From the NCBI GenBank assembly GCA_043826505.1, contig JBDRQC010000004.1, positions 524,974 through 588,973 of the forward strand: DNA of 64,000 bases, written 5' to 3'. The translations under genes and the position numbers were made by a program. The notes under the pieces are model-generated. The model did not search any database. It was not told where the DNA came from and saw only the letters and a program-made list of their open reading frames with translations. Positions 1,960 through 39,598 of the stretch are shown piece by piece (position 1 is the stretch's first letter; each line of letters starts with the position of its first letter). The DNA is from Chrysiogenia bacterium (GTDB taxonomy: Bacteria; Acidobacteriota; Aminicenantia; UBA2199).

Positions 1960-2490
1960 CTATTTTTCGATACCGGTCCGGGCCTGGACATTTTTCTGAA
2001 AATAGTGGCGGATCTCCTTCATCTCGGTCACCAGGTCGGCGCGGTCAAGGATGGCCTGGGGCGCGTAACGCCCGGTCAGCACCAGCTCCACATTTGCCGG
2101 TTTTCGTTCCATGAGCTGCAGCACCGGTTCAATGGCCACGATCTTGAAATGCAGAAGGGTGTTGATCTCGTCCAGGACAACGATCCGGTACTCGCCTGCG
2201 GCCAGGGCGGCGCCGGCCGCAGCCAACCCCGCCTCGGCCGCCTTGACCTCGACGGCGCTGACGCCATTTTGCATATGATGAAATTCCGGCAAGCCGAACT
2301 GCTCGATGGTGATCAGATCGGCCAGGCGCTCACGCACGGCCAGCAGTTCGCCGTATTCTCCCTTTTTTAAAAACTGGGCCATAAAGGTCTTCATGCCCCG
2401 CCCGGCCGCACGCAGGGCCAGTCCCAGGGCCGCCGTGGTCTTGCCCTTGCCGTTGCCGGTATAGACCTGGATTTGGCCCTGGAAATACAT
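1960..2490 (-). CDS. cobO: cob(I)yrinic acid a,c-diamide (corrinoid) adenosyltransferase, CobA/CobO/BtuR family
   Basis: P-loop YTGNGKGKTTAALGLALRAAG and overall length about 176 aa match CobA-type ATP:corrinoid adenosyltransferases. Confidence 0.8.
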   Translation of the reverse strand: MYFQGQIQVYTGNGKGKTTAALGLALRAAGRGMKTFMAQFLKKGEYGELLAVRERLADLITIEQFGLPEFHHMQNGVSAVEVKAAEAGLAAAGAALAAGEYRIVVLDEINTLLHFKIVAIEPVLQLMERKPANVELVLTGRYAPQAILDRADLVTEMKEIRHYFQKNVQARTGIEK

Positions 2491-2496
2491 GCCGCC

Positions 2497-5400
2497 TCAA
2501 GCCATCTTCATGGAATACAGCTTGGAGACGCCGGGCTCGTCCATGCTGATGCCGTAGATGTAATCGGCTTCCTCCATGGTTTTGAAATTGTGGGTGATGA
2601 TGACGAACTGGGTTTTGCTCTTCAACTGGTGCAGGAATTTCAGGAAACGCTGGATGTTGGCCTCGTCCAGCGAGGCGTCGACCTCGTCAAAAACGCAAAA
2701 AGGCGACGGCTTGTACTCGAACAGTGAGAACAGGAAAGCCAGCGAGGTGAGCGTTTTTTCACCGCCGGAAAGCAGGCGCATGTTCTGCAGCCTTTTGCCC
2801 GGGGGCTGGACCTGGATCTCCAGACCGGTCTCCAGCACATTTTCGCTGTCGGTCAAGAGCAGTTCCGCCTCGCCGCCCTCGAAAAGGATCTTGAAATTCT
2901 TGACGAAATTATCCTTGATGGCAGCGAAGGCTTGCAGGAAACTTTCCCGGGATTCGCTGTCGATGCGGGCGATGGCGGCATTCATGTCGGTAATGGATCT
3001 GACGATATCCTCTTTCTGGCCGAGCAGGAAATTGTAGTCTTTATCCAGGATCTCGTACTCCGCTTCGGCTGAGAAGTTCAGGCGGTCGCTTTCACGCATG
3101 CGGTTCAGCTTATGCACCATATCGTTGAATTGGGCGTCAAGCTGAGCGGTTTCAACCTGCATCATTTCGGGATCGGCCTCGATGTCCTTCAGTTCCATTC
3201 CCAGTTCCTGGCCGGCGATCTCCTCAAGCTGGAAGAGATCCTTTTTCACCGCGGCCAGCTTGATCTCGCTTTCCTTCTTGTTTTCGCGCCACTCTTCCAG
3301 GACCTTTCTTTTGGCGGTCAGTTCCGCGGAAATTTTCTTTGTCTGCCCGTTCGCTTCGTCCAAGGCCAGCTCCTCTCTTTTTAATGATTTTTCCAGGTCG
3401 GACTTTTCCTTTTCCAAGGCCTTGGCGCTGACCTTGATCTCCTTGATCTTGGCGGTGCTGGCGGCGATCTCCATTTCCAGGCGGTTTTTTTCTTCCTCGG
3501 CGTTAAGGATCTGCTGCCGGCGTTTTTCGTTCCTGCCCTGCGCTTCCTGCAGCGATTTTTTTCGGGAATTGATCTTTTCGCGGATCAGGTTCAAGGCGTT
3601 GTCCCTGTGGATTTTTTCCTTTTCCCGGTCATTGATCTGCTGCAGCAATTTTTCATTTTCCCGGCCGGAGCTTTCTTTTTCGCGTTCCAGCGTTTCATTT
3701 TGTTTGTCCAGATCGGCTTTTTTCGTCTCCAACTCGGTCAGGCGCTCATTGAGTTTTCCGGCTTCAGCGGCCAGGTCCTTGATTTCGGCGGTGGTGATCT
3801 CGATGCGCTTCAGACCCAGGTCGCGGTTTTTCTTCAGCGCCTCCAGGCGTGAGCGCAGGACGATGCCTTCCTCTTTGTGAGTGCTTAAGGCAGTTTCGGC
3901 TTTTTCCCGCTGCCCGACTTTTTCTTCTTTCTGCCGGGAAACTTTTTCGAGGTTCGCCCTGATCCCGACCAGCCCTTCCTGCAAAAGGGCTATTTTTTTA
4001 TCGATGGCCTTGATCTCGTCCAGCACCTCCAGAATTCCCCGGTCGCGGTTCTTGATCAATACCCCATTGCTGCCGATCACTTCTCCTTTTTCCGTGACAA
4101 TGTCAACGCCGTATTTGGTGTAGATGGCCAAGCCGCTCTTCAGCGAATCCACCAGCACCCCGTCACGGAAATATTTTTTCAGTTCCTTGTCTTCCAATTC
4201 AAACAGGTTTTTTACGAAATTCCTGAATCCGGGCGCGGCGCGGACGGCGGCGGGCAATTCCGCGGCAGCGGAGCGCTTGAGAAAAGCCTTGCGCATTTCA
4301 GGTTGCAGGGCGACCTCGCTGTCGGTCAATATCGGCGCATCCAGCTCATCGAAATAAAAACTCTCCAAAACGGAGTGGATATTTTTGGGCGCCACCAGCA
4401 GTTCCTGCAGGAAACCGTTGTTTTTTTCGGAGCAGGGCCTGTCCTGGGCACCGGTGATCTTCTGCTTGATCTCCAGATATTTTTCCTTCTGGCGGCCGAG
4501 ATTGGCGATCTCGTTTGTGGTTTCGCGCAGCTGTTTTTCTATGGCTTCGTCTTCGGCTTGTATTTTCCTGAATGCCGCGGCTGCTTGCTCAGATTCGTTT
4601 ACTTCAACGCGCAAGGTTTCGGTCAAAGCTTGCACCGCGCTTTCGATCTGGGCGATCTCCGGGTTCCGGCCCTGGTTCTCGAGTTCACGGATAAGCTGTT
4701 TGCGGTTGCCGATATCCGCCTCGAGCCGCATCAGGGTTTTTTCCAACTGCAGGGATTCGTTGCGGTTGCGGGAGATCTCCACCTGCAGGTTGAACATCGA
4801 TTTTTTCAGGTGGCCATCCTGAACATTCCGCTCGGAAACGGTTTTTTTCAGGTCGTTGATGGCCAGGTCCAATTCGCGGTTGCCGCCGTCCTGCTCAGCC
4901 AGTTGCCGGTCCAATTCGCTCATTTCCGCGGCCAGGGTTTTGTCCTGGCTATCGATCTCCTTGATCTCGGCCTGGCTTTCCGCCACAATTTTCTGCAATT
5001 CGAGCATTCTCTGCTTGAGGAATTCCTGGCGCTGCTGCGATTTTTCAATTTCCTTGCTGCCTTCCAGGAGACGATTGTTGCGGTCGAAAATAAACTGCTG
5101 GTTGTCCTTCAACCCGTGGTCCAGCTTCCAGCGCTTCGTTTCCAGGTCGAGCAGGCTCCTGTCAAAATCGGTGATCTCCCTGACCAGGGCCGCCTCGCCG
5201 TTCAGGAACTCCATGATCTTCCCACCCTGCAGGTCAAACTCATCCTTGAAGGTCAGGTACTTTTTTCTCAAAAGGGCTTTCAGATGATCGTTCCTGGTGT
5301 TTTTAATTTCGCGGTAGCGGCGGGCGAAATGCACCTGGTTTTTCAGTTCGCGCAAGCGGTTGCTTTTTTCCTGCAAAACCAGGTCCAGGCTGTCCAGGTT

Positions 5401-5943
5401 CTGCTGGGCGATTATCAGTTTGCCGGCGGTCTCTTTTTTCCTTTCCAGGTATTGGGCGATGCCCGCCGCTTCTTCGATCAGGATGCGCCTTTCACTGGGC
5501 TTGAGGTTGACCATTTTTTCGATGCTGCCCTGCTCGAAAATGAAGTAATTGCGTTCACCGATGCCCAGGTCGAACAATGTGTCCTGGACATCCTTGTTGC
5601 GGCAGAACTTTTCGTTCAGGATGTATTTTCCTTCGCCGCTGCGGAAGAAGCGCCGGGCGACGTAGGTTTCATTTTCGTTGTTGGCGAAATAGGCTCCGAC
5701 CTCGGTCATGCCCAGGGGCTTTTTCGAGGCACTGCCGGTGAAAATGAGGTCCTCATTGTTTTCGCCGCGCAGGTTCTTGATGCGCTGCTCGCCCAGGACC
5801 CAGAGCAGGGCGTCGACCAGGTTGCTCTTGCCGCAGCCGTTGGGGCCGATCATGGCCGTGATGCCCTGGTGGAACTGGATTACCGTTTTTTCCGGAAACG
5901 ATTTAAAGCCGTGCAATTCGAGTTTTTTCAGATAGATGCTCAT
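2497..5943 (-). CDS. smc: chromosome segregation protein SMC
   Basis: N-term IKLELHGFKSF...IGPNGCGKSN Walker A, long coiled coils, C-term LSGGEKTLTSLAFLFS...VFDEVDASLD signature/Walker B; real start probably MSIYLKK (ORF extends to 5979). Confidence 0.9.
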   Translation of the reverse strand: MSIYLKKLELHGFKSFPEKTVIQFHQGITAMIGPNGCGKSNLVDALLWVLGEQRIKNLRGENNEDLIFTGSASKKPLGMTEVGAYFANNENETYVARRFFRSGEGKYILNEKFCRNKDVQDTLFDLGIGERNYFIFEQGSIEKMVNLKPSERRILIEEAAGIAQYLERKKETAGKLIIAQQNLDSLDLVLQEKSNRLRELKNQVHFARRYREIKNTRNDHLKALLRKKYLTFKDEFDLQGGKIMEFLNGEAALVREITDFDRSLLDLETKRWKLDHGLKDNQQFIFDRNNRLLEGSKEIEKSQQRQEFLKQRMLELQKIVAESQAEIKEIDSQDKTLAAEMSELDRQLAEQDGGNRELDLAINDLKKTVSERNVQDGHLKKSMFNLQVEISRNRNESLQLEKTLMRLEADIGNRKQLIRELENQGRNPEIAQIESAVQALTETLRVEVNESEQAAAAFRKIQAEDEAIEKQLRETTNEIANLGRQKEKYLEIKQKITGAQDRPCSEKNNGFLQELLVAPKNIHSVLESFYFDELDAPILTDSEVALQPEMRKAFLKRSAAAELPAAVRAAPGFRNFVKNLFELEDKELKKYFRDGVLVDSLKSGLAIYTKYGVDIVTEKGEVIGSNGVLIKNRDRGILEVLDEIKAIDKKIALLQEGLVGIRANLEKVSRQKEEKVGQREKAETALSTHKEEGIVLRSRLEALKKNRDLGLKRIEITTAEIKDLAAEAGKLNERLTELETKKADLDKQNETLEREKESSGRENEKLLQQINDREKEKIHRDNALNLIREKINSRKKSLQEAQGRNEKRRQQILNAEEEKNRLEMEIAASTAKIKEIKVSAKALEKEKSDLEKSLKREELALDEANGQTKKISAELTAKRKVLEEWRENKKESEIKLAAVKKDLFQLEEIAGQELGMELKDIEADPEMMQVETAQLDAQFNDMVHKLNRMRESDRLNFSAEAEYEILDKDYNFLLGQKEDIVRSITDMNAAIARIDSESRESFLQAFAAIKDNFVKNFKILFEGGEAELLLTDSENVLETGLEIQVQPPGKRLQNMRLLSGGEKTLTSLAFLFSLFEYKPSPFCVFDEVDASLDEANIQRFLKFLHQLKSKTQFVIITHNFKTMEEADYIYGISMDEPGVSKLYSMKMA

Positions 5944-6130
5944 GATTCCGTCCGGGCCGGGCTTGCCGGCCCCTACCAAGATACCACAACTCTGGCCGTT
6001 TGTAAATTTCCCCGATCGGGAGGATCGGGCCCATTCAGGACAAGTTTTTCAGGTAACCTGCCTGGCTTGGCTAATTAAACCAGGATGACAAAATCCCCTT
6101 TATGCCTTAAAATGATTCAGGAGAATTGCC

Positions 6131-7876
6131 ATGTTCCGTATCCGCAAAATCTATGATCGCCATACGCCGAGCAATCGCAAGGCCCTGGACCAGGCACTGG
6201 CCATCCTGCGCAGCCATTTCACGGCCGTGAAACCGGAAAAGATCCACGAGCTCAACTCCAGGATCGACAACCCCCTCAAGTACAAGTTTCAAACGTTGCT
6301 TTTTGTGGCCGAAGACGATAAAAGCAACGTCAAGGGATTCGCCATCCTGCTGGCCGCCCCGGACCTCAAATTCGCCTTCCTGGATTTCATCGCCACCCGC
6401 AAGGGCATCCTGGCCGGCGGCATCGGCAGCGCCATTTACGAGCGCGTCCGCGAAGAGGCTGAGGAGATGGGGGCCGTGGGCCTGTTTTTCGAATGCCTCC
6501 CGGACGATGCCGGTCTATGCCAGCTGTCCCACTTGCTGAAGGACAATGCGGCCCGCTTGCGCTTCTACGAAAAATTCGGCGCCCGGCCCATCCAGGGAAC
6601 AAAATACGAAACGCCGGTAAAGCCGGGAGATGTCTGCCCTCCCTATCTCGTCTTCGATGATCTGGGCCACGGCATCCCCCTGGCCCGAGACACTGCCAAA
6701 ACGATCGTGAGAGCCATTCTGCAGCGCCTGTACGGCAGTTACTGCTCTGCCGAGTATATCCAGATGGTGGTGGATTCCTTCCGCGACGACCCGGTGCAAC
6801 TCAGGCCGCCGCGCTATTCCAAAAAGAGTCCCGTCAGTGTCGAAACGGGGCTGCGTCTTAAAACCCAGCGGATCATGCTGGTGGTCAGCGAAGGCCATCG
6901 CATCCACCACATCAGGGAGCGCGGCTACGTGGAGTCGCCGGTGCGCATTGATTCCATACTGGCGGAGATCGATAAAACAGACTTTTTCGTCCGCGTGCCG
7001 ACCGAGCAATACCAGGAGAAATTCATCCGCGATATTCACAGCGGCCATCTCGTGGGCTTCATAAAAAAGGTCAGCAGGGAAATCGATCCGGCGAGTTCCC
7101 TGTACCCCTATGTATTCCCCGTACGTCATCACTCCGAGCGTCCGCCCAGGGAGTTCTGGGTAACGGCCGGCTACTATTGCATCGACACCTTCACCCCCTT
7201 GAGTCGCTACACATACCAGGCGGCTCGCCGGGCCGTGAACTGCGCGCTCACGGGGGCGGACCAGCTGCTGCAAGGAGAACCGTTGGCCTATGCGCTGGTG
7301 CGGCCGCCCGGCCACCATGCCGAAAGCCGCGTCTTCGGGGGTTTTTGCTATTTCAACTCCGCCGCCGTGGCCGCCCAATACCTGTCCCGGTTCAGCAGGG
7401 TCGCCATGCTGGACCTGGACTACCACCACGGCAACGGCCAGCAGGAGATCTTCTACCGGCGCAAGGACGTCCTGACCGTTTCACTTCACGGTGATCCTTC
7501 GTTCGCCTATCCGTACTTCAGCGGTTTCCGCAAGGAAAGGGGCGAGGGGGAGGGACTGGGATACAACCTCAACATTCCCTTGCCGGAAAACCTGAGCGGT
7601 CCCGAACACCGCATGGCGCTGAAAAAAGCCCTGAAGCGGGTAGCGGATTTCCGGCCCGAATTCCTGGTGATTCCCTTTGGCGCTGATACGGCCAAGGGCG
7701 ATCCCACCGGCACCTGGAGCTTGAAAGCGGCCGACTTTCATGCCATGGGCATGATGATCGGCATCATCCGCCTGCCCAAACTGGTGGTCCAGGAAGGCGG
7801 CTACCGCACCCGGCAATTGGGAGTCAACGTACTGGCTTTTCTAAAGGGTCTGCTGCAGGGCCGCAACGGGATTTAG
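6131..7876 (+). CDS. fusion protein: N-terminal GNAT-like acetyltransferase-fold domain plus C-terminal histone deacetylase/acetoin-utilisation (AcuC/HDAC) family domain
   Basis: N-term ...KGFAILLAAPDLKFAFLDFIATRKGILAGGIGSAIYERV (GNAT motif A-like); C-term RPPGHHAE...FCYFNSAAVAA...DLDYHHGNGQQEIF...IPFGADTAKGDP (HDAC catalytic motifs). Confidence 0.75.
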   Translation: MFRIRKIYDRHTPSNRKALDQALAILRSHFTAVKPEKIHELNSRIDNPLKYKFQTLLFVAEDDKSNVKGFAILLAAPDLKFAFLDFIATRKGILAGGIGSAIYERVREEAEEMGAVGLFFECLPDDAGLCQLSHLLKDNAARLRFYEKFGARPIQGTKYETPVKPGDVCPPYLVFDDLGHGIPLARDTAKTIVRAILQRLYGSYCSAEYIQMVVDSFRDDPVQLRPPRYSKKSPVSVETGLRLKTQRIMLVVSEGHRIHHIRERGYVESPVRIDSILAEIDKTDFFVRVPTEQYQEKFIRDIHSGHLVGFIKKVSREIDPASSLYPYVFPVRHHSERPPREFWVTAGYYCIDTFTPLSRYTYQAARRAVNCALTGADQLLQGEPLAYALVRPPGHHAESRVFGGFCYFNSAAVAAQYLSRFSRVAMLDLDYHHGNGQQEIFYRRKDVLTVSLHGDPSFAYPYFSGFRKERGEGEGLGYNLNIPLPENLSGPEHRMALKKALKRVADFRPEFLVIPFGADTAKGDPTGTWSLKAADFHAMGMMIGIIRLPKLVVQEGGYRTRQLGVNVLAFLKGLLQGRNGI

Positions 7877-8571: not shown

Positions 8572-11500
8572 TCATTTCACCATTTCCAGAAGCACCGCTA
8601 CCGCTTTTTCCAACTGCTGGTCGCGGCCGGCGGCGACGACCAACGGTTCGTTTTTCACGACAAAATCGGGGACGGTTTCCCGGTTTTCCAGCCAGTGGCC
8701 CTGGCCATCCTGGGCGCTCACCGGGACCATGCCCCACATGGTGGCGCCGTCCTGCAGCCTTTCCCAGCCCGCGAAGCTGCAGGTTCCCGGCGTGGGCATG
8801 CCGATGGTCTTGCCGATGCCGAGCTCCTGGTAGCCGCAGGCGAAGCAGTGGCCGTCGCTGTAATTCGCCTCGTTGAACATGGCCACGGTGGGCCTGGTCC
8901 AGCGGAAGGAGGGCTCATAGCCCAATGAGCGCTTTTCGGTGCGATAGTCGAGGAATTTGCTGCCGCTGAAGAACATGGCCAGATCGGCGACCAGGTCGCC
9001 GCCGCCATTGAAGCGGGTATCGACGACCACACCCTTGCGATCGAGGTATTTGCCCATCATCTGTTCGTAGACATCGCGGTAGGGACCGTCGCCCATGCCT
9101 GGTATGTGCACGTAGCCCAACTGCCCCTGGCTCAGCTTGTCGACCTCCTCCTCGTTCTTCCTGACCCAGCGCTTGTACAGAAGAGCATACTCATCGTTAA
9201 ACTTAATGGGTTTGAGCGAAACCTGCCGCCTGGTTTTCGTCAGTGGATCAAAAACTTGCAGCAGCGTGAACCTGCCGGCCTTGCGGTTCAGGTAAGCGGC
9301 GCTGTCGCGGTCGGCGGCGACCGTCTCGCCGTCGATCTGTTCGATGATCATCCCGGCTTCAATTTTAATGCCTGCCTTGTCAAGGGGACCGCCGCGGATG
9401 ATCTCGGCGATGCGAATTCCGTCACCATTGTAATCGTAATCCATGAATATGCCCAACGAGGCGGTGTCATCACCGTCGCTGCGCTGCGGATTGTATCGGG
9501 CACCGGAATGGGAACTGTTCAACTCGCCCAGCATTTCCGAAAGCAGGTCGGTGAATTCGTAACCGCTGCCAATGCCGGGCAGATACTTCAGGTAGGCGCT
9601 GCGCAGTCCCTGCCAATCGGCGCCGTGAAAGCCAGGCGAATAAAACCCGGTCCGCGTGCGCTGCCATACGTGCTCGAACATGTACTTCCTTTCCGCGGCC
9701 TGGTCCAATTTCATTTCGCCCTTGATCTCAACGGCCTGGCGCTTGCCCTTTTCCAGGTCGATCCTGGAGATCTTGCCGTCGGCGAGCAGGAAGAGGTTCT
9801 TCATCTCCTTGTCCCACTGCAGCCGGCCTCTCTCGGCATCGAGCTGCATCACCATTTTCGCTTCCTTGCTGCGCAGCTTGCTGCTCCACAGGTTGAGCCC
9901 CTTTTCGAAGCTGGCCAGGTAGTAGAGGGTTTCGCCGTCCTTGGAGAGAACAGCATCGTCCAGCGAGGAAGAGTGCAGGGTCAGCCGCGCCTTGCGTTCG
10001 TGCAGGCCGTCCCAGGCGAACGTAAGCGCGGCCGGTTTCTCACCGACGCCAGCCTGCTTGTCCTTCTTGCCCTTCTTGCTTTTGGCCGCGGCCTCCTCCT
10101 TTTCCTTTTTCTCCTTCTCCTCAATCGCCTGCAACAATGCGAAATCCTCCTTGCTCAGGTTGAAGCGCTCCCAGGCCTCGCGGCTGAAGAACATGGAATA
10201 TACATCGGCCTGCCTGTCGCCGCTGTTGGCCAGGCTGCGCAGGCCGTCGCGGGTACTGAACCACAGCATCTGTTTGCCCGCGTTCACCCATTTGGGCCGG
10301 TAATCGCTGTGGCCGCTCTGGGTGAGGTTGATCATTTTGCTTTTGCCGTCGGCCGCGATCAGAACCACATCCCCCACCATAAGTATCGGACAATACTCCA
10401 CCAGGAGCCACTTGCTGTCCGGACTCCAGGAAAAATACTGGTCGCCGTCGGACATGTAGTAGAGCTCGTCCGGAGTGAGCAGGACGCGTGTTTGCCTGCT
10501 GGCCAGGTTGTAGACCGCGAGCGAGGCGCGATTCTGGATGAACGCGACCTCCTTGCCGTCCGGAGAATACTGCGGCTGGTAGTTGTTGTTGCCGTTGCTG
10601 AACAATGGTTCTTCTTTGAGCACCGTGGCTGCGTAAAAGTAAGGCTCCTCCTGGCGTGTTTTTTTGGTTTGATAGATCTGCCATTTGCCCTGGCGTTCGC
10701 TGGCGTAAAGGATGGCTTCGCCATCAGGCGAGAAGCTGGCAAAGCGCTCCTGTTCGGGAGTATCGGTGATGCGCTTGGTGACTCCGCCCTCGACCGCCGA
10801 GACGAATACCTCGCCGCGCACCACATATACGACCTCCTTGCCATTGGCCGACACATCCATCTCCCTGGCATTGCCGCTGATGGCCAGGAACAGGTCGTTG
10901 TTGCGCTTGTCCTCGCTGCGGATGGTCACGGCGACCTGCCGCGGCTGGCCGCCCGGCGACATGGTATAGAGGTCGCCGTCATAACCGAAGCAAAGGGTGC
11001 CGTCACTGCTGCTGCTCAGGAAACGCACCGGGAACTGCTTGAAAGATGTCAGCTGGCGGTTCTGCCGGGGATTTTTCAGCTCGAGTTTATGAACGTTGAA
11101 GTTGCCGCTCTCCTCGCTCAGGTAGCAAATGCTTTGATCTTTATCAGCGAAAACCGGATTGCGGTCCTCGCCCTTGAAGACGGTGATCAGCCGTTGCTCG
11201 CCGCTGCTGCTGTCGTAAAGCCAAATGTCACGGGTTATGGACGAAACGTGGTGCTTGCGATATTCGTTTTCGCCCCCTTTCTTGTCGTGGTATACCATTC
11301 GCCGCCCGTCCCGGCTTACCTGGACGGCTTCGGCAGGAAAGGTCCATACCATGGCGACGCGGCCACCCTTGGCCGGAACGCTGTAGAGTTCAGGCTGCGA
11401 TGCGCTGGGAAACTGGCGGTGGCTGGCCAGGTCCTGGCGCTGAGCGCCGAAAAGCACCGCCTGGTCATCGGCGCTGAATGTGTAGGGGTACTCGTTGCGC

Positions 11501-11823
11501 GAGTGGCATGTCAAGCGCCGTGGTTCTCCCCCTTGGGCACTGACAATGAACACATCGAAATTTCCATAGCGGTCCGCCGCGAAGGCGATCGATTTGCCGT
11601 CGTGGCTCCAGACGGGCATGTGGTCATAGGCCTCGTTGAAAGTGATTGCCTTGGCGCTGCCGCCGCTTGTCGCCACGGTGTAGATATCGCCCTTGTAGGT
11701 AAAGGCGATGGTCCGCCCGTCGGGGGAAATGGCCGGATAGCGCAGCCAGGTGGGACCATCCTGGGCAATGACCGTGGTCAGGCCCAGGCACAGGAACAAT
11801 GCCAGGATCAGTGAATGTTTCAT
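8572..11823 (-). CDS. tricorn protease homologue (beta-propeller + PDZ + S41 peptidase)
   Basis: Signal peptide MKHSLILALFLCLGLTTVIAQ at ATG 11823; repeated TolB-like propeller blades (DGKSIAF..., DGKEVAF...), PDZ (GIRIAEIIRGGPLDKAGI) and S41 motif (FNGGGDLVADLAMFF). The 1227-aa track ORF's extra N-terminus is an artifact that overlaps a GNAT gene. Confidence 0.85.
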   Translation of the reverse strand: MKHSLILALFLCLGLTTVIAQDGPTWLRYPAISPDGRTIAFTYKGDIYTVATSGGSAKAITFNEAYDHMPVWSHDGKSIAFAADRYGNFDVFIVSAQGGEPRRLTCHSRNEYPYTFSADDQAVLFGAQRQDLASHRQFPSASQPELYSVPAKGGRVAMVWTFPAEAVQVSRDGRRMVYHDKKGGENEYRKHHVSSITRDIWLYDSSSGEQRLITVFKGEDRNPVFADKDQSICYLSEESGNFNVHKLELKNPRQNRQLTSFKQFPVRFLSSSSDGTLCFGYDGDLYTMSPGGQPRQVAVTIRSEDKRNNDLFLAISGNAREMDVSANGKEVVYVVRGEVFVSAVEGGVTKRITDTPEQERFASFSPDGEAILYASERQGKWQIYQTKKTRQEEPYFYAATVLKEEPLFSNGNNNYQPQYSPDGKEVAFIQNRASLAVYNLASRQTRVLLTPDELYYMSDGDQYFSWSPDSKWLLVEYCPILMVGDVVLIAADGKSKMINLTQSGHSDYRPKWVNAGKQMLWFSTRDGLRSLANSGDRQADVYSMFFSREAWERFNLSKEDFALLQAIEEKEKKEKEEAAAKSKKGKKDKQAGVGEKPAALTFAWDGLHERKARLTLHSSSLDDAVLSKDGETLYYLASFEKGLNLWSSKLRSKEAKMVMQLDAERGRLQWDKEMKNLFLLADGKISRIDLEKGKRQAVEIKGEMKLDQAAERKYMFEHVWQRTRTGFYSPGFHGADWQGLRSAYLKYLPGIGSGYEFTDLLSEMLGELNSSHSGARYNPQRSDGDDTASLGIFMDYDYNGDGIRIAEIIRGGPLDKAGIKIEAGMIIEQIDGETVAADRDSAAYLNRKAGRFTLLQVFDPLTKTRRQVSLKPIKFNDEYALLYKRWVRKNEEEVDKLSQGQLGYVHIPGMGDGPYRDVYEQMMGKYLDRKGVVVDTRFNGGGDLVADLAMFFSGSKFLDYRTEKRSLGYEPSFRWTRPTVAMFNEANYSDGHCFACGYQELGIGKTIGMPTPGTCSFAGWERLQDGATMWGMVPVSAQDGQGHWLENRETVPDFVVKNEPLVVAAGRDQQLEKAVAVLLEMVK

Positions 11824-11857
11824 GAATAGATATACGCTGAAAAGGCTTTCTTTTGTT

Positions 11858-12532
11858 TCACTTTGCTGCATTTTTTGGCCCGGGCAGCGGATAAAAAGAA
11901 AAATTTGCCCCGACCGGCATGCGGGCCGTGCCGGCGCCGAAGGCGAAGCGCATGATCGGGCGCGTGGGCGAACGGCGCGCCGCTTCCACGAAGCCGTTGG
12001 CCGTGAACGCTTTCGGAATTCCGGTCCAGGCGAACGCCGCCGCAATGGTTTTGCCAGCCCGTGGTTCCACCGGGTAGCCCTCGAGAAAAGGCACGCCCTT
12101 GCCTCTGACGTAGTCGACGGCGGCACCCAGCAGCAGCGTGGCCACGCCCCGGTTGCGATATGAGCGGTGGACGAACAGGCAGGAGACCGACCAGCAGGAT
12201 TGGTCATCGATCGGCGCCAGGACCCGCGAACGGGCCAGGGCCGGAAACTGTTCACGCGGCGCTACGGAACACCAGCCGACCGGCCTGCCGTCGAGATAGC
12301 CCAGCAGTCCCGGCACTTCGCCCGTTTCGACCAGGGCCTGCATGGCCCGGCGGTTGCCGTCGCCTTTCTGGGCGGTGAATTGTTTTCGCGGCAGGCGCCA
12401 GAACATGCACCAGCAGCCGCCGCAGGCGCCCCTGGCACCGAAAAGCTCCGCGAAATCCCTCCAGCGCTCCTTGGTCAGGGGATGGCAGGCGAATTGTCCG
12501 GCAACGGGCGCGGCACCGATAATTTCTTTCAT
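11858..12532 (-). CDS. GNAT family N-acetyltransferase
   Basis: ORF 11858..12595; motif RNRGVATLLLGAAVDYVRGKGVPFLEGYPVE (acetyl-CoA binding Q/RxxGxG/A); probable start MKEIIGA. Confidence 0.75.
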   Translation of the reverse strand: MKEIIGAAPVAGQFACHPLTKERWRDFAELFGARGACGGCWCMFWRLPRKQFTAQKGDGNRRAMQALVETGEVPGLLGYLDGRPVGWCSVAPREQFPALARSRVLAPIDDQSCWSVSCLFVHRSYRNRGVATLLLGAAVDYVRGKGVPFLEGYPVEPRAGKTIAAAFAWTGIPKAFTANGFVEAARRSPTRPIMRFAFGAGTARMPVGANFSFYPLPGPKNAAK

Positions 12533-12660
12533 GATTTTTTTGCAGCGGGGACCGGATTTTCTCGATCTCTTTTTCCCAGCGTGCTTTTCAGCCACCCGAC
12601 CAAAGTCGCCGCCATGACGCTGTCGAGCGAATCACTTTCTAACGGCGTTTTCGTTTTTTC

Positions 12661-13695
12661 TCATTCCGCCGCTTTTTCCTCGAAGGCTTTCAGGCGCTTA
12701 CGGGCTTTTTCAAGCGCCTCATTAATATTATCCTTATCCGCGTTCGCTTCTTCCTTGAGCTCCTTTTCCAATTGCTTGATATTTTCCAGCAAGTCATTTT
12801 TGGTATCTTCTTTCTGCTGGGCCAGCTCCGCCTTGTCAAATACGATCTTCTCGGCGCCCGGCGCTTTTTCCGCCCGTTTTTCCAACATCGGCTGGGGGAT
12901 GCATTGCTTGTCTTCCGCCAAGCGGCGTTGGTTCTGGTAGGCCGGAGAGGTGATCTCGATGCCTTGACCATGCAACACGTCCAAAACCGCCCTGTTGAGG
13001 TTTGAACGAGCCGTGAGCAATCCTTTCACTTCGCAGAGAACACCGGCGACACGGTAGGTGACCGCAAAATTCCCAAGTTCCAAAATATGGACAAAGGGCT
13101 CAATCAGGCCGCTCTTTTCCGCGGCCTTGCGCAAAAGGGGTTCGACCTGGGCATGATGGACATCATAGCCCAGAGAAAGAGACGCGGAGACAATGGCGCC
13201 TGAAGCCTGGACCGTAGAGACAGGATTTAAGATCAGGTAGGTGTTGGGGATGGCGATCAGCTCTCGATTCTCCGATTGGATTTCCGTATCGAACAGGCCC
13301 CTTTCAGCGACACGCCCGAAGTAATCACGAACCTGAACAAAATCACCGATGCGGAACGGTTTTGTAATACGAAGCAATATCCCCGCCATGAGATTCGCGA
13401 AAATGGTGCTTGATGAAAAGGCGAAGATGCCCGATATCACCAGGCCGATAACCCAGATGACCTGATTGCGGGAACTGTCGCTAACGGGCAAAGCCAGGGA
13501 GATGCCCACGATGCTTACAAAGATCAACCCCAGCATGGCCAGCTGCCGGGAAAACAAGCGTTCATTGCCGAGGTTGGCATGCCGCCCGATGAGCAGGCGA
13601 TAAGTGGCCCAGAGCAGCACTGCGAAACCCAGGATCGTCACTAACAATGGGAAAAAGGAAACCATGATTTCAAACAGCTTATTTAAAAATGACAT
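12661..13695 (-). CDS. mechanosensitive ion channel, MscS family
   Basis: 3 N-terminal TM helices, then MscS beta-domain (ITKPFRIGDFVQV...GRVAERGLFDTEIQSENRELIAIPNT); Lys/Glu-rich C-terminal tail. Confidence 0.85.
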   Translation of the reverse strand: MSFLNKLFEIMVSFFPLLVTILGFAVLLWATYRLLIGRHANLGNERLFSRQLAMLGLIFVSIVGISLALPVSDSSRNQVIWVIGLVISGIFAFSSSTIFANLMAGILLRITKPFRIGDFVQVRDYFGRVAERGLFDTEIQSENRELIAIPNTYLILNPVSTVQASGAIVSASLSLGYDVHHAQVEPLLRKAAEKSGLIEPFVHILELGNFAVTYRVAGVLCEVKGLLTARSNLNRAVLDVLHGQGIEITSPAYQNQRRLAEDKQCIPQPMLEKRAEKAPGAEKIVFDKAELAQQKEDTKNDLLENIKQLEKELKEEANADKDNINEALEKARKRLKAFEEKAAE

Positions 13696-14251: not shown

Positions 14252-16681
14252 TTACAATTGCACCCGTCTAAGCCTGAGCGAATTGCTGATCACGGAAACC
14301 GAGCTGAAGCTCATTGCCGCCGCGGCAATGATCGGCGACAATAGAATCCCAAAGAATGGATACAGTACCCCCGCGGCAATGGGGACACCCGCCGTGTTGT
14401 AAACGAAGGCAAAGAACAAATTCTGCCTGATATTGCGCATGGTGGCCCGGCTCAAGCGCCTGGCCCTGACGATTCCCCGCAGGTCGCCTTTGACCAGGGT
14501 AACGCCGGCACTTTCGATCGCCACATCGGTACCCGCGCCCATGGCGATACCTACCTGGGCCTGGGCCAGCGCCGGGGCATCATTTATGCCATCCCCGGCC
14601 ATGGCAACGATGCGGCCCTGGGCTTGAAGCTCCTTGATCAGTTCGGCTTTTTGCTGAGGCAGTACTTCGGCGTGCACCTGGTCGATTGCCAGTTTGTCGG
14701 CAACCGCTTTCGCTGTGGTGCGGCTGTCACCGGTCAGCATCACGATGCGCATGCCTTGGGCATGCAAATCACGGATGGCTTCGGCCGTCGAGCCCTTGAT
14801 GGGATCGGCGATGCCGATCAAACCGGCTGCCTTGCCGTCAATGGCGAGCAACACGACCGTCTGGCCCTCGGCGCGCAGCTTGTCAGCCTGCTGCGTCAAG
14901 TCTCGCGCATGAATACCCAGGCTTTCCAGCAGTTGGCCGTTTCCCGCCGCCAGCACATGTCCGGCCACTTCACCGGTGACACCTTTTCCCGTATGGGACT
15001 GAAAGTTTTCGGCCTTGACCAGCCCGATCCCCCTTTCCTTTGCCCCCTGCACAATGGCTTCGGCCAGCGGATGCTCGCTGGCCCGTTCCAGGCTGGCGGC
15101 CAGGCGCAGTATTTCATCCTCGCTGAACCCTGCTTGCGCTTGCAGCGCCACCAGCTTTGGCTTGCCTTCGGTCAGGGTGCCGGTCTTGTCCACCACCAGG
15201 GTATCGACTTTTTCCATGATCTCCAGCGCTTCGGCATTCTTGATCAGCACACCGGCCATGGCGCCGCGCCCCGTTCCCACCATGATGGCAATGGGCGTGG
15301 CCAATCCCAGCGCGCAGGGACAGGCGATGATCAGCACGGCAACGGCATTGACAATGGCATGCGCCAGGCGCGGTTGCGGTCCCCATAGCGACCAGACAAC
15401 AAATGCAGCCACGGCAACGGTCACGACCGCGGGCACGAAATAGCCGGCCACGACATCGGCCAGCTTCTGAATGGGCGCGCGCGAGCGCTGCGCTTCGGCT
15501 ACCATCCTGACGATTTGCGCCAGCAAGGTATCAGCGCCGACTTTTTCCGCCCGCATCAGCAAACTGCCCGTTCCGTTGACCGTGGCGCCGATCAGTTTCG
15601 CGCCCTTGGCCTTGGCCACGGCCATGGGTTCACCGGTGACCATGGATTCGTCCACGTTGCTGGCACCGTCAATGACCGTGCCATCCACCGGGACTTTCTC
15701 GCCGGGCCGCACCCGCAGGGTATCGCCGGCCTGTACATGCTCGAGCGGGATATCCTCTTCTGCCCCATCATTGCGCACGATTCGTGCCGTTTTCGGGGCC
15801 AGGCCGAGCAGCAGCTGAATGGCCGCATTGGTCCGCGAGCGGGCGCGCAATTCAAGCACCTGTCCCAGAAGCACCAGGGCCGTGATCATTGCCGCCGCTT
15901 CAAAGTAAACATCCACCCTGCCGCCCTTCATCTGCATTATGGCAGGGAAAATCTGCGGGAACACCAGGGCCACGACGCTGTATACCCAGGCCACGGAGAC
16001 ACCCAGGGCGATCAAGGTGAACATATTGAGGTTCCAGGTGCACAGCGATTGCCAGCCGCGCACAAAAAACGGCCAACCGCCCCCCAGCACGACAGGTGTC
16101 GCCAGGGCGAACCCGATCCATTGCACCATGGACATGGAAAGCCCTGCCGGCAACCAGGCCGGCGCCAGGTCGGCGATCATGGCCAGGATGAACACCGGAG
16201 CTGCCAGAAAGACGCTGATCCAGAAGCGCCGGCTCATGTCAATGAGTTCCTCGTTTTTTTCTTCAACTCCGACCGTGAGCGCTTCCAGGGCCATGCCGCA
16301 TTTCGGGCAATTCCCGGGATGGTCCTGCCGCACTTCGGGATGCATGGGGCAGGTGTACTCGAGTTTGGTTTGCATCGCCGGCAGGCCCGCCGCCTCCAAT
16401 GCCATGCCGCACTTTGGACAATTGCCGGGGCCCTGCTGGCGGATTTCCGGATGCATGGGGCAGGTGTATGGTACCGGCCCGTCGTGTGATTCATGAGCAG
16501 GCGGGCTTTCCTTTTCCAGGTATGGTTTCGGGTTCTCCTTGAATTTGTGCAGGCAATGTTCACTGCAGAAATAATATTGCTCGCCCGCATGGCGGTACTG
16601 GTATTTGCTATCGCCGGCTACGGTCATGTTGCACACGGGATCCCTGTGTTCGTTTTTTTCTGTATTTAATTTTTTACCCAT
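14252..16681 (-). CDS. copA: copper-translocating P-type ATPase with N-terminal TRASH/YHS domain and two CPxHP metal-binding repeats
   Basis: CPC ([11 protein letters not shown]), [18 protein letters not shown]-type motifs; N-term CNMTV...YYFCSEHC (YHS/TRASH) and 2x YTCPMHPE...[11 protein letters not shown]. Confidence 0.9.
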
Positions 16682-17137
16682 ATCCCCATCCTCTTCTGTT
16701 CCATTTCAATTCATTTTATCAATAAAAAACCGGACGCACAATTTTTCAATGCGGCCCGGCCGCATCCGCCAGCGAGAGCCAATTCAGGAAGTTGCGATTG
16801 CTGCCATCTGGAGACCCAACTCCGGGTATTTCCCATTTCAGCGAATGACATTTTTCAGAATATTTGCCAGGCGGGTAGCGGATATGTAGCGATCGGCCAA
16901 AACTTTGCCGTTATAGATCAAAGTGAAGACTCCGCAAAGGGAGGGCGTTTCCTGGGCCTGGGGGAACTGGTCGATGTTGGCCAGGGACTTCTCGACAATG
17001 TTTGCCTGCGCTGCAAATGCTTTCACGCACACATCCCGGTAAGTCCTATATGAATTATAAGCTGCCTTTACTCTCGAAATTCACGTCTTAAATTTTAACA
17101 ATCCGTACCAGAATGCAAATTTAATTTCGGCACCAAT

Positions 17138-17581
17138 TCAAAACAGGAAACGGGCGCCAATTGCCAGAATGATTGCCAGGCTGATGATCACTGCCGCCAC
17201 GATCAAACTTTTCGCAAGCAATGAGCGAGTTTCTTTGTCACTGGCACGGACATCCATCTCCCCTGTCTGGATCGCCCGTTCCAAATCGTCCAATTCGTTT
17301 TGCCAGAACTTGCGTTCACTTTTAGTAACGAACTGGCCGGTAGTATCAATAACGAAGGTTACGGTGACAGACGTTGGCTGACCGGGACTTGGGATGAGTT
17401 GAATGATGGCATTGACCTTCGAGCCTTTTGCTGAAAAGGTGAAAAATGAGCCGCGCCCATAGGTCAGCAGCTGCGGTTGGGATGTGGTCTGGGTGTAGCC
17501 GGCCATATAAAAATAGGTTGCCAGGCGTTCACGCACTGTGGCTTCGCTGACAGCGGCACTGATGTTGCGCTCGAGTTTCAT
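17138..17581 (-). CDS. hypothetical protein with C-terminal TM helix
   Basis: 147 aa ORF; C-terminal hydrophobic LIVAAVIISLAIILAIG. Confidence 0.4.
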   Translation of the reverse strand: MKLERNISAAVSEATVRERLATYFYMAGYTQTTSQPQLLTYGRGSFFTFSAKGSKVNAIIQLIPSPGQPTSVTVTFVIDTTGQFVTKSERKFWQNELDDLERAIQTGEMDVRASDKETRSLLAKSLIVAAVIISLAIILAIGARFLF

Positions 17582-18546
17582 TGGTTCGCCTCCATTTCCA
17601 CGGTCAGCGTATTCCAGGCGGTCGCTTCAGGGTATTCGTGCGGGTCTTTCAGGCGCCGCAGCAGGAGCAGCGAGGCGCTGGCCTCCGGAGAGATGCCGTC
17701 CAGCAGCAGGGAAAAGTGGGAGAAGTTTTTCACCCTGACGCCGTTGACCTCCAGGACCACGTCCAGGGGGAGGATGCCGGACCGGCCCGCCGGCCCGGAG
17801 CGGGCCACCATGGTGACCAGGACGCCCTCGCCAACCGTAATTCCCATGTCGGTGGCCTGGGCGAGGGTCAGGTTCTCCCACATCAGCCCAAACCGGGAAA
17901 ACCTCAATGCCAAGCCCCGCTGTTCGAGGAGCGACGCCGCGGCATTGATGAAGGCTCGGGCCGTATCCTCCAGCGCGAATAAAAAACTGAAGCGGGACGC
18001 GGCCAGGATGTTAACGTTCCAGTTGCGGCCCGGGGGGGCCTTGGCAAAGAGCCCGCTGGGATTGGGCAGGTAATGCAGGTCGATGCCGCGGATTTCATCA
18101 AGGGCGATGTAGCAGTAAGACTGGCCGCGATACTGGTTCAGGTAGCCGCTGCGCCATTCGGCCTCGATCCTGAGATTGTCGGCTTTTTCGGGCCGCGCCC
18201 TGTATTCTTTTCTCTTGGCGGCCTTACCCCTGGTCAGGCGGAATTTTTTGGCGAAAAACACCGATGCGCCGAACTTGCTGTCCAGGAAGGCCGTTTCCTC
18301 GGCGACAGCTTTCTTGAATACGGCATCGATCTGTTCCGCCGTGAGGTCGGTCCGGGGAATGACCCAATGCCACAGGCTGCTGCCCGCATGCGGCCAGACC
18401 TGCGGTTCCGCGACCTGGGCCAGGCAAGCGGTCACCGTCATCCAGGCAAATAATCCTATGGTGATCGCCAACCGCCAGGCAGCATGGCCGGGTTTCCCTC
18501 CCTTCCCGTCCGCGAGCCGAAATTGTTTTGTCTTTGCTTGCCTCAT
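17578..18546 (-). CDS. PDZ domain-containing membrane-anchored protein
   Basis: N-terminal signal-anchor; C-terminal PDZ-like GITVGEGVLVTMVARSGPAGRSGILPLDVVLEVNGVRV. Confidence 0.6.
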   Translation of the reverse strand: MRQAKTKQFRLADGKGGKPGHAAWRLAITIGLFAWMTVTACLAQVAEPQVWPHAGSSLWHWVIPRTDLTAEQIDAVFKKAVAEETAFLDSKFGASVFFAKKFRLTRGKAAKRKEYRARPEKADNLRIEAEWRSGYLNQYRGQSYCYIALDEIRGIDLHYLPNPSGLFAKAPPGRNWNVNILAASRFSFLFALEDTARAFINAAASLLEQRGLALRFSRFGLMWENLTLAQATDMGITVGEGVLVTMVARSGPAGRSGILPLDVVLEVNGVRVKNFSHFSLLLDGISPEASASLLLLRRLKDPHEYPEATAWNTLTVEMEANQ

Positions 18547-33937: not shown

Positions 33938-35545
33938 TCAAGCACCGAGCAAGCTCTCCCTTGTTCCATCTCCGATAATTGTTCCAAACTCATTTTTGTG
34001 GCAAATCACATCTATTTCGGTAAAATACTTTTCATTATACGATGAAGAATAATTGGCATTCTGAGGATTCACATTAGAATTGACAAGTTTTCTATATAAA
34101 ATACAAACATTTCCTCCAATCAGCACATCGCTTCCAATTATACTGAATGCAATATTGCAAAATGACATTATTCTTGTGCCTGACAGTATAATTGAATTCT
34201 TTATTATCGTATTTGCTTCAATAAAGACCCTTTCGTCAAGATTGGAATTTTCAACCAATACATTTTTCCCAATATAGCATCCCGCCTTTAATACACAAAC
34301 ACCTTCTATTGTTGCGAAATCATCAATAAATTTTGGGTTACATCCTATTGGTTTTATTATCATCCCATTTACTGCCGCTCGTGAACTAATCCAATTATCG
34401 GAGTCATTAATCCAACGAAATTTTCTGAATTTTTTATTATCTAGCAATTCTCTGAATTTACTTCCATTTGGATGATTATCGATTTTATCAGACATTTTAT
34501 TAGACATTGAATCTGACATTAATATTTCAACATCATATCCCTCAAGGTTCGGATGATCAAGCTCACACTTACAATTAGCTAGGTACCAATCAAGATAAGC
34601 TTCCTTAATAACTCGATCTGCATTCAAATGTTCCCAAGGAAAATTAATATCAAAACATACATTGTTGATAGATTCTTCTGACAAACAAATATCAATATTT
34701 GCTTTTCGGCTTAAATATGGGAAAATAAAATAATTTATAAAATGTTTAATAAAAAAATAATTGGCTATCTGGTTTTTTACATTTAAAATTTCTTTCCACA
34801 TTTTAGAATTCATTAGAATCAATCCAGTAAATTTTGCCAAAATATTTTCTTTATTTAAATAATTTTTTAAATTAAAAACTGGATATAACGGCCTATCAAT
34901 AACATCAACAACATTTCTGAAATTTATTTTTTTATAATTTATTTTGTTTTTGGTATCATCATGGGATCCCTTTTTAATTACAAAAAAACTTTGCAAATTA
35001 TGTGATTGGAATTTCACTTTTGATTGAATCGATTTTTCATGAAGATTCTTTGTAAAATCACTAGCAGCAAAAACTGCAAATGGGGATTTATTGACAATCT
35101 TTTTCTTAGCGGTTTCAAAAATAAAACTCCAAAAATCATCATGAATCAGGGTATCACCACAAATAACAATAATTGGATTTTTGTCAAATGACTCAATTGA
35201 TTTATAATAATTCTCTTTAAGATAATTAATACCTTCCACGATAGATGGAAAAATCCCCTGGGCAAATGATGATGACACTGTTGCGAAACAGACTATTCCC
35301 AAATATCTCTCGGAATTAAATTGGTTTTTTTACAAATCCAGATTATTTGGATCGGCAACTATACAAATTTTATTTACGAATTCTCTTTTTTCTTTTTTTA
35401 GCAAATCATCTATTAAAAACTGAATTGTGGTTTTATGATTTAATGGCAAAAGGTTTAAAAGTGGAGAAATTTTGAAGAAACTTGATATTCCACTGAATTC
35501 TTTTACCGTAGGAACTATTACATTATACTTTGCAATAGACAACAT
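33938..35545 (-). pseudogene. sugar-phosphate nucleotidyltransferase / left-handed beta-helix (hexapeptide) acyltransferase, split by a frameshift
   Basis: ORF 35330..35545 (KISPLLNLLPLNHKTTIQFLIDDL like the NTP-transferase PxLPxxxKPxI region) and ORF 33938..35302 (IVICGDTLI GD motif; C-term hexapeptide repeats IIKNSIILSGTRIMSFCNIAFSIIGSDVLIGGNV) are separated by a T7-8 run at about 35325-35331. Confidence 0.55.
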
Positions 35546-35991
35546 AGGTTAATTAATATTTACTCCATCTCAGTTCGATTTTTGACATATACTAGATTAT
35601 AATGAAGAATATCTGAAAATCAAGCGCTGCTCAATTTTTTTTGTTGATATTGTAATATTTATTTTTTACTGTAATTGATTTCATTGAAGGCTTCTTCAAA
35701 TCATGGAAAAGAAAATGAGAATCGTGTCTTGAATTAACAGGTCGATCAATAACCATTTTCACGAATATATTTGTCATTTCAAGACATTATACTAATACCC
35801 CATGCCCCCAATCTTCCCTATTAAGAGAAAGCTTGGTGCCAGGTCTTGCATTATCGCTTCTGCCAATGCCCAGAACAAGAATATGTTTTCAATTAGATAA
35901 GAAAACCCATTTTGTCATAATGTAAGACCTGACAGCATTTCTTCCTGTTCTTCCCTAGACGTACTTTCACTTTAAGAATACATTTATTATT

Positions 35992-38653: not shown

Positions 38654-38947
38654 CTATAATCCCCTTCATTATTAATATAAAATCATTCAATTTCAGTAAA
38701 AACACTTAATTGTTTAAAACTTCTATTAGAAATTTCTTACCCATTTAGAATCAAGGGAAAATTCGGTGCCAGGTCTTTCATTAATACTTTTTGGCCAAAT
38801 CAAAATCAAGAGAATGGTTTCAAAAAGAGATTTAAAAATACAATTTTATTAGAAAAAAATATCTGCCCCATTTCATTCAAACAAATCTTAAAAATCAAAA
38901 CATTTGAAATTCATCTCAATCATACATTTGGCAGAATTCTAGCATAA

Positions 38948-39334: not shown

Positions 39335-39598
39335 ATAACCTCCTAATAATTATCATAATCTAAAATAAAGAATTAACATTTTTTATCCTAGCTCCAATAA
39401 TGGCCTGGGGAAGCTTCTCAGGAGAGAGAGAATTCCTTTTGCATCCATAGATTGATTAAAAAATAAATTATAAGTTGTGGCGGACAAGAAAGAAAATTCG
39501 GGCCAGGCCTTGAATTGAAAGATCAATCATTGATCGTATTAAAAAAAACTGTCATTTCAAAACCGGACTCCAAGCATTGGAAATAACTACTTTTTATG

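Follow-up and report, generated by a model that had tools for sequence, protein, structure and literature searches.

What a bacterium might gain from carrying an acetyltransferase and a deacetylase on one polypeptide chain is the question raised by an open reading frame (ORF) in a 64,000-nucleotide stretch of contig JBDRQC010000004.1, from a Chrysiogenia bacterium of the Acidobacteriota lineage Aminicenantia (assembly GCA_043826505.1; the whole stretch is hereafter called the window). Zinc deacetylases and GNAT acetyltransferases usually occur as separate enzymes that counteract each other, and a conserved chain that holds both offers a test case for the coordination of opposed acetylation reactions. 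A preliminary description of the window had proposed that such a fusion is encoded there, and the presence of both domains in one polypeptide was borne out by Pfam matches (PF00583 and PF00850), by the fold of an AlphaFold model and by Foldseek comparisons. The protein was found to belong to a large and widespread bacterial family with an N-terminal GNAT module (N-module) and a C-terminal zinc hydrolase of the acetylpolyamine amidohydrolase (APAH) type. Because most lineages co-transcribe the fusion gene with genes for a KamA-family aminomutase, two ATP-grasp ligases and a small second GNAT, the most likely role for the family, favored here tentatively, is the addition and removal of an acetyl group on a small metabolite derived from β-lysine, either as a protection and deprotection step or as a control of acetylation state.

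Full-length fusion proteins of ~580 amino acids, 56-93% identical to the window protein in a database sequence search, make up over 120 clusters when grouped at 90% identity. Their names are only generic, 'histone deacetylase family protein' in databases or, at JGI, 'AcuC-like enzyme/GNAT superfamily N-acetyltransferase'. When the N-module by itself was used as the query of an exhaustive search, 458 representatives (50% identity) were returned, and the E values of 250 were 1e-10 or lower. The phylogenetic distribution, which the preliminary description had suggested examining, proved to be very wide: a scan in which each species was represented by a single genome, using the tighter of two alignment profiles (A3, the divergent alignment A2 being too loose), located the fusion in at least 589 genomes, most of them of uncultured anaerobes, and in over ten phyla. 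Acidobacteriota/Aminicenantes, Nitrospirota, Desulfobacterota, Dehalococcoidales, KSB1 and Planctomycetota are represented, as are Ignavibacteria, Omnitrophota, Bacillota, Synergistia, Vulcanimicrobiota and others. The N-module was joined to an APAH domain in all of the 80 best genomic loci; the shorter ORFs among them are mostly cut by contig ends, and two more, L014 and L050, end early. The two halves have similar mean pairwise identities, 60% for the GNAT and 67% for the APAH domain, and diverge together (r = 0.82). Over 26 full-length homologs, the catalytic and cofactor residues G97, G99, Y146, H395, H396, D430, H432, D519 and Y558 are all invariant, and E121 is present in 25. These counts uphold the earlier statement that the metal-binding and catalytic motifs of the deacetylase are complete, and answer the question it raised about conservation of the GNAT catalytic Glu and Tyr.

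Both domains were already known and had been seen by automated annotation, and what appears to be new is recognition of the fusion as a large, conserved and uncharacterized bacterial family, together with its linkage to an operon for a lysine aminomutase and ATP-grasp ligases. No description of the fusion, or of an operon with KamA and two Ddl-like genes, was found in the full-text literature searched, whose coverage omits most subscription journals, and the fusion is not mentioned in a 2024 survey of bacterial deacylases (Graf et al., PMC11532494).

Genomic context provides a clue to function. An early view that this context was uninformative, based on four loci without common neighbors (L001, L003, L004 and L005), was overturned when up to four genes on each side of the fusion were compared over the 80 best loci, using our own ORF calls and single-linkage clustering of blastp matches. 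Genes for a KamA-family radical-SAM enzyme, two Ddl-like ATP-grasp ligases and a small canonical GNAT (sGNAT) recur on the same strand, in the order KamA-Ddl1-Ddl2-(sGNAT)-fusion-(sGNAT), and the stop codon of one gene often overlaps the start codon of the next. Upstream DNA of 4 kb or more was available for 53 loci; KamA and both ligases adjoin the fusion in 37 of these, a partial set is present in three, and none of these genes is present in 13. No Rfam match, as to riboswitches, was obtained in the window or in eight operon loci.

The KamA protein matched the lysine 2,3-aminomutase model AblA best among NCBIfam models (488 bits, below the cut-off of 525), ahead of those for the glutamate (425 bits) and arginine (392 bits) enzymes, and it aligned with lysine 2,3-aminomutase of C. 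subterminale (2A5H) at 1e-137. A CxxxCxxC cluster, Asp293 and Asp330 are kept in 41 of 41 copies. Both aspartates reportedly bind the ε-ammonium group of lysine, and Lys and Asn are said to occupy these positions in glutamate 2,3-aminomutase. As judged from its sequence, the operon aminomutase is of the lysine type. Ddl1 and Ddl2 fall into two orthogroups; members of the same orthogroup are 40-48% identical, and identity from one orthogroup to the other is 27%. The small GNAT is encoded upstream of the fusion in 30 loci and downstream in 18, and in six proteins it forms a third domain at the C terminus of the fusion, with 35-53% identity to the free form. Its NCBIfam matches were weak and limited to rimI-type models, with no match to a β-lysine acetyltransferase model. 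The copy at 9713-10237 of locus L084 is orthologous (E = 4e-39) to the structural-genomics entry 2R7H, Desulfovibrio Dde_3044, which is annotated 'putative D-alanine N-acetyltransferase' and has no assigned function; as a protein of solved structure, it offers an entry point for biochemistry. A GNAT of 148 amino acids encoded directly after the fusion in Geoalkalibacter was considered as a further operon copy and dropped, as it gave no tblastn match at 1e-5. Finally, nine loci have an inserted gene for a MarC-family transporter.

Because the neighbors of the family comprise KamA, two ATP-grasp ligases, a second GNAT and sometimes a MarC transporter, they point to small-molecule chemistry based on β-lysine rather than to the stand-alone protein switch implied by the 'self-contained acetylation switch' of the preliminary description. 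Two unusual proteins bear on this context. P0161, an N-module of 236 amino acids (locus L087, 4601-5311) with no deacetylase domain after it, shares its locus with a frameshifted KamA gene, a gene for a Ddl1-like ligase and one for an M32 carboxypeptidase, on a contig that seems to be error-prone, given its fragmented AAA genes. P0155 joins a Ddl2-like ligase to the N-module, which matches the gene order of the operon, and may represent read-through or a truncated contig. Five other N-modules that seemed to stand alone (P0164, P0201, P0143, P0132 and P0251) are truncated fusions, while P0233 (T2SSE plus N-module) and P0238, which seem to be chimeric or frameshifted, were set aside.

The GNAT assignment of the N-terminal half was examined by several means. 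PF00583 matched residues 49-129 at 25.0 bits in the whole protein and 26.7 bits in the N-terminal half alone, over a gathering cut-off of 20.7, and PF13508 scored 23-25 bits, just under its cut-off of 27. NCBIfam has no model for either half of the fusion; a scan of the N-terminal half against it at E values up to 10 gave a single spurious match, and no β-lysine acetyltransferase model was matched. Because the Pfam score was borderline, the assignment was checked with a PDB profile search, an AlphaFold model and Foldseek. A profile built from 18 divergent N-modules retrieved essentially only GNAT acetyltransferases from the PDB, the best being streptothricin and nourseothricin acetyltransferases (E = 2e-7), followed by RimI and Gcn5. 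The AlphaFold (AF2) model of residues 1-245 has a mean predicted local distance difference test score (pLDDT) of 91.7 and a predicted template modeling score (pTM) of 0.88, and it shows the whole GNAT topology, with elements in the order b1-a1-a2-b2-b3-b4-a3-b5-a4-b6-b7, followed by two extra helices at residues 186-215. Foldseek placed it closest to Gcn5/PCAF, with a template modeling (TM) score of ~0.77, and target-normalized TM scores against Gcn5/PCAF, AAC(6'), RimI and PaiA were 0.63-0.79, although sequence identity to Gcn5 is only 12-15%. Thus, by Pfam, profile and fold alike, the N terminus corresponds to GNAT models and not to an N-terminal extension of a histone deacetylase. The GNAT that had been placed at residues 60-170 is indeed present, but the module occupies residues 1-235 and, with the 458 representatives given above, appears to constitute a distinct and new GNAT family of ~235 amino acids.

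Conservation within the N-module is concentrated in motifs of the catalytic type. A Q/RxxGxG/A signature had been read in residues 88-106; its G97-x-G99 core is invariant, while position 94, where Q or R was expected, is Leu in the window protein and Thr in most relatives. G97, G99 and Y103 are invariant in the 26 full-length homologs, and in the 18 divergent N-modules G97 and G99 remain invariant and Y103 is at least 90% conserved. E121, whose counterpart in the profile alignment is the b5 Glu of RimI, may act as the general base, and D125 is invariant in both sets. In motif B, N139, R142, F145, Y146, E147 and G150 are invariant in the full-length set; among the divergent N-modules, this invariance extends fully to F145 and Y146 and nearly to N139, R142 and E147. 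Y146 lies at what would be the canonical position of the general-acid Tyr. Because G97, G99, D125, F145 and Y146 are invariant across even the most divergent N-modules, the pattern argues that the GNAT half is probably a working enzyme rather than a relic.

The C-terminal half was found to resemble APAHs more closely than other deacetylases. Its bit scores against APAHs of known structure were 245 for 9gkz (E = 1e-71), 227 for 6phr and 216 for 3q9b, with 3men also among the best, compared with 100-125 for single-domain HDAH, HDAC6 and HDA15 chains and 111 for the class-I-like HDLP (1c3r). Foldseek ranks 1 to 16 for the full-length model are all APAHs. Against the four APAH structures just named, target-normalized TM scores are 0.77-0.84 and sequence identities about 36-38%, and no NCBIfam AcuC model was matched. 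The AcuC or class I label given in the preliminary description was therefore replaced by that of an APAH-type domain with an extended L2 loop.

In the survey of Graf et al., this L2 loop is the dimer-forming 'polyamine-specificity loop' of deacetylase cluster 4, the only cluster in which polyamine deacetylases were found (PMC11532494). In the fusion family the loop is highly conserved and aligns without gaps to the L2 loops of PsApaH and MrApaH, and it has low pLDDT in the monomer model. Its invariant R332 stands opposite R95 of PsApaH; at the position of D163, the salt-bridge partner of R95, the window protein has R400, and an invariant E398 lies two residues before (both counted by hand, the former on a printed alignment).

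The bacterial APAHs of cluster 4 of Graf et al. (2024; PsApaH, 9GKZ; M. ramosa, 3Q9B; M. subterrani, 6PHR; B. pseudomallei, 3MEN) have the same fold as the C-terminal 330 residues of the fusion. The extended L2 loop, the tyrosine of EGGY, the HH pair and the ligands of zinc are likewise common to both. They differ from it in being single-domain proteins of ~340 amino acids, whereas the fusion carries a GNAT module of 245 residues before its L1 loop. In addition, APAHs have a PIS motif where the fusion family has an invariant PTG (for the meaning of this position, see PMC11532494), and E106 or H106 at a specificity position that is W343 in the window protein and P, A, S or E elsewhere in the family. 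The L1 loop of the fusion is ~7 residues shorter than that of APAHs, with its H-x-x-H-H and E-x-P-x-R elements retained. On these sequence features, the deacetylase half is classed as APAH-like (cluster 4), yet not as a standard APAH.

These observations can be assembled into a scheme in which both halves would be active on the same class of compound. The N-module would transfer acetyl from acetyl-CoA to an amine, and the APAH-type hydrolase would remove N-acetyl from an aminoalkyl chain resembling that of lysine or a polyamine. Lysine 2,3-aminomutase would make β-lysine, and the two ATP-grasp ligases would form two amide bonds. An amine might then be protected by acetylation while the ligases build these bonds and be deprotected afterwards; alternatively, the acetylation state, and with it the charge, of the finished compound might be controlled. 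The use of acetylation for protection has a parallel in arginine synthesis, which is bracketed by ArgA and ArgE. Precedents for the logic, from domain families and with substrates that differ from those of the fusion, are Ngg of the NAGGN osmolyte pathway, in which a GNAT fused to an ATP-grasp ligase makes an N-acetylated dipeptide osmolyte, and the E. coli glutathionylspermidine synthetase/amidase Gss, in which opposed activities on one small amine conjugate are fused.

Several findings support an acetyl-based role on a β-lysine metabolite. The standalone N-module P0161 shares a locus with KamA and a Ddl1-like gene. The best relatives of the N-module by PDB sequence profile are the streptothricin and nourseothricin acetyltransferases (7YPU, 5C82 and 3PP9; E = 2e-7 to 4e-5), enzymes that transfer acetyl to the β-amino group of β-lysine moieties; the similarity is remote, limited to strands b2-b5 and ~70 residues, and these resistance proteins of ~190 amino acids have neither the extra helices nor a deacetylase. 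The closest solved deacetylases are small-molecule acetylpolyamine enzymes with the same extended L2 loop, and a pocket of the APAH type fits an N-acetylated aminoalkyl chain such as that of Nε-acetyl-β-lysine. Among described pathways the nearest is that of methanogens in which AblA and AblB produce the osmolyte Nε-acetyl-β-lysine, following the same logic of an aminomutase reaction and then N-acetylation (PMC1224877). However, the abl operon includes no ATP-grasp ligases and no deacetylase, both of which occur in the operon of the fusion's relatives; neither the N-module nor the small GNAT matches a β-lysine acetyltransferase model of NCBIfam, and the window lacks an aminomutase.

Other observations weigh against this role. 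No homolog of KamA, Ddl or the small GNAT was detected by tblastn (E of 1e-3 or lower) anywhere in the 64-kb window, and the 13 bare loci among the 53 well-flanked ones are likewise orphans. A neighbor-joining tree grouped the window protein with L007 (97% identity), L008 and L009, all from Aminicenantes/Acidobacteria, and with L060, in a separate, early-branching clade, every copy of which lacks the operon neighbors. Two changes specific to this clade, N334H and R345T, fall in the L2 loop, and its substrate may differ. By fold, the N-module comes closest to protein lysine acetyltransferases. PsApaH, the closest solved deacetylase, acts in vitro not only on polyamines but also on peptides and on the AcsA protein at AcsA-K549ac (PMC11532494). 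If both activities worked against each other on one substrate, acetyl-CoA would be wasted, except under regulation or where each is directed at a different nitrogen. In only 14 fixed differences, none of them catalytic, does the window clade depart from the 70 other sequences; therefore, the enzyme chemistry of the window copy is almost certainly that of the family. That it acts on the same substrate class as its operon-linked relatives is suggested only by homology.

A possible but more doubtful extension of this reasoning is that the fusion serves as the acetyl 'writer-eraser' of an undescribed β-lysine pathway in anaerobes of over ten phyla, composed of lysine 2,3-aminomutase, two distinct ATP-grasp ligases, two GNATs and the APAH-type deacetylase. 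Its product would be a new acetylated β-lysine peptide or conjugate, perhaps an osmolyte or a polyamine surrogate, whose acetylation state the fusion would adjust to acetyl-CoA, with the window copy acting likewise. The linked operon suggests that an undescribed β-lysine-derived metabolite is widespread in anaerobes of subsurface and sediment habitats, including Dehalococcoidales, Desulfobacterota, KSB1, Planctomycetota, Acidobacteriota and others. Once this compound is identified, the metabolism of poorly known phyla would be extended by a pathway, and a function would follow for the proteins now labeled 'histone deacetylase family protein'. For the window alone the result is more modest, its protein being a well-supported new member of the family.

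An alternative that is unlikely, though it has evidence of its own, is a protein acetylation switch, in which the fusion would write and erase acetyl groups on protein lysines, those of the neighboring ATP-grasp ligases or of other targets in genomes with orphan copies, as set by the supply of acetyl-CoA. The model for it is the B. subtilis pair AcuA, a GNAT, and AcuC, a deacetylase, which control acetyl-CoA synthetase (AcsA) through the same opposed activities, as separate proteins. The closest structural matches of the N-module, to the histone acetyltransferases Gcn5/PCAF and also to RimI, are in keeping with such a switch, as are the dual peptide and polyamine activity of PsApaH and the isolation of about one-quarter of the well-flanked loci, the window included, which would be expected of a general regulator. 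Yet the resemblance to Gcn5 is structural, at the low sequence identity given above, and the deacetylase half groups with APAHs and away from AcuC and class I enzymes. AcuC belongs to deacetylase cluster 2c (PMC11532494), the fusion domain scores far higher against APAHs, and no AcsA gene is linked to it. Furthermore, the L2 loop, which restricts access in APAH dimers (PMC11532494), is fully kept, and the presence in the operon of a MarC transporter and of another, dedicated GNAT is more in line with metabolite chemistry. A switch of the histone type is consequently considered less likely than a role on a β-lysine metabolite.

Polyamine acetylation homeostasis is somewhat more improbable. Here the GNAT half would act on putrescine, cadaverine or spermidine in the manner of SpeG, SSAT or PaiA and the APAH half would reverse the reaction, independently of β-lysine. 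This would explain the orphan copies; the closest characterized deacetylases are true acetylpolyamine amidohydrolases, and PaiA and a diamine acetyltransferase are among the weaker matches of the GNAT half. Against it, no polyamine biosynthesis or transport genes recur beside the fusion in the 80 loci, where KamA, the ligases and the small GNAT do, and the APAH signatures PIS and E106/H106 are not conserved, PTG being invariant in the family and position 343 variable. Least probable is a sensor joined to an enzyme, a non-catalytic GNAT fold that would bind acetyl-CoA, CoA or substrate and gate the deacetylase allosterically, since the most conserved N-module residues are of the catalytic type (G97, G99, D125, F145 and Y146, and nearly N139, R142 and E147) and the occurrence of the module without a deacetylase suggests autonomous activity, which together weaken the earlier suggestion of a mere ligand-binding module despite the unconserved Q/R position of motif A, a Pfam score barely over its cut-off and the general precedent of regulatory GNAT-like and CoA-binding domains in other acetylation enzymes.

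The features of the fusion gene are collected in Table 1. Because the MFRIR N terminus is common to all homologs, the ATG at 6131 is taken as the correct start. A sigma-70-like match at 6085-6113 was given no weight, its consensus being weak and the transcription start that it predicts lying inside the ribosome-binding site.

Table 1. Features of the fusion gene and its protein; positions are numbered from the first nucleotide of the window.
Feature	Residues	Positions	Strand	Remarks
Shine-Dalgarno sequence AGGAG		6119-6123	+	7 nt 5' of the start codon; read directly from the sequence
GNAT-APAH fusion ORF, complete	581 aa	6131-7876	+	ATG start
N-module	1-235	6131-6835	+	GNAT fold at 3-176, two family-specific helices at 186-215, conserved LRPPRY end
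GNAT motif A, acetyl-CoA pyrophosphate loop	94-103	6410-6439	+	L-A-G-G97-I-G99-S-A-I-Y103
Acidic residues of strand b5		6491-6508	+	E121-C-L-P-D125-D
GNAT motif B	139-150	6545-6580	+	N-A-A-R-L-R-F-Y146-E-K-F-G
Variable linker, short	236-244	6836-6862	+	Low conservation, low pLDDT
APAH-type zinc deacetylase domain	245-575	6863-7855	+	PF00850 at residues 267-573, E = 2e-70
Extended L2 loop, APAH 'polyamine-specificity loop'	323-357	7097-7201	+	Invariant R332
Tandem catalytic histidines	H395-H396	7313-7318	+	Invariant; aligned to the APAH HH pair
Zinc ligands in LDLDYHHGNG	D430, H432	7418-7426	+	Invariant; aligned to M. ramosa APAH DVDFHHGNG
Third zinc ligand	D519	7685-7687	+	Invariant; aligned to the Asp of APAH GVDT
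PTG motif	P525-T526-G527	7703-7711	+	Family-invariant; P-I-S in APAHs, P-E-G in HDAC10
Catalytic tyrosine, EGGY motif	Y558	7802-7804	+	Invariant; aligned to APAH EGGY

The immediate neighbors of the fusion in the window, a divergently transcribed SMC gene, a gene for a small membrane protein and one for a tricorn-like S41 protease, are uninformative about its function. The earlier statement that the first 40 kb contain no other convincing plus-strand gene holds approximately, as the remaining plus-strand ORFs tested had no Pfam match and one merely shadows a racemase gene. A strong plus-strand AT skew of -0.26 over 2000-6000 coincides with the SMC gene (2497-5979, minus strand), and several long shadow ORFs lie on the plus strand there, among them one of 591 amino acids at 4303-6078 that is almost certainly no gene. 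The tricorn-like ORF (8572-12255, minus strand; 1227 amino acids) encodes PD40 propeller repeats and Tricorn_C1, PDZ and Peptidase_S41 domains, and a tricorn-like fragment also adjoins the fusion in L009, in the other orientation. Its 5' part is overlapped by a separate GNAT ORF of 245 amino acids (11858-12595, minus strand; PF00583, 40.8 bits), which is unrelated to the operon small GNAT by tblastn, and the first ~110 codons of the tricorn ORF are probably an over-extension.

Downstream of the fusion, both on the minus strand, are genes for an MscS-type mechanosensitive channel (12661-13695) and for a P-type ATPase of the heavy-metal kind (14252-16681), which has the metal-binding domains YHS and HMBD. 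In another carrier of the fusion, Geoalkalibacter halelectricus (L001), a trio of genes for RimB-like, 7TM-transglutaminase and ATP-grasp (ATPgrasp_ST) proteins occupies 14511-17682, ~5 kb downstream of the fusion. Farther along the window, PADLOC identified a Gabija anti-phage pair on the minus strand (35992-38653), composed of GajA (37037-38653; 538 amino acids, 670 bits) and GajB (35992-37056; 354 amino acids, 397 bits). The GC content is 0.44-0.51 between 26 and 34 kb, falls to a minimum of 0.29-0.35, compared with ~0.57, over ~34000-40000, where the Gabija pair lies, and returns abruptly to ~0.6 near 42 kb. Because of this drop in GC content, the Gabija region is probably a horizontally acquired island.

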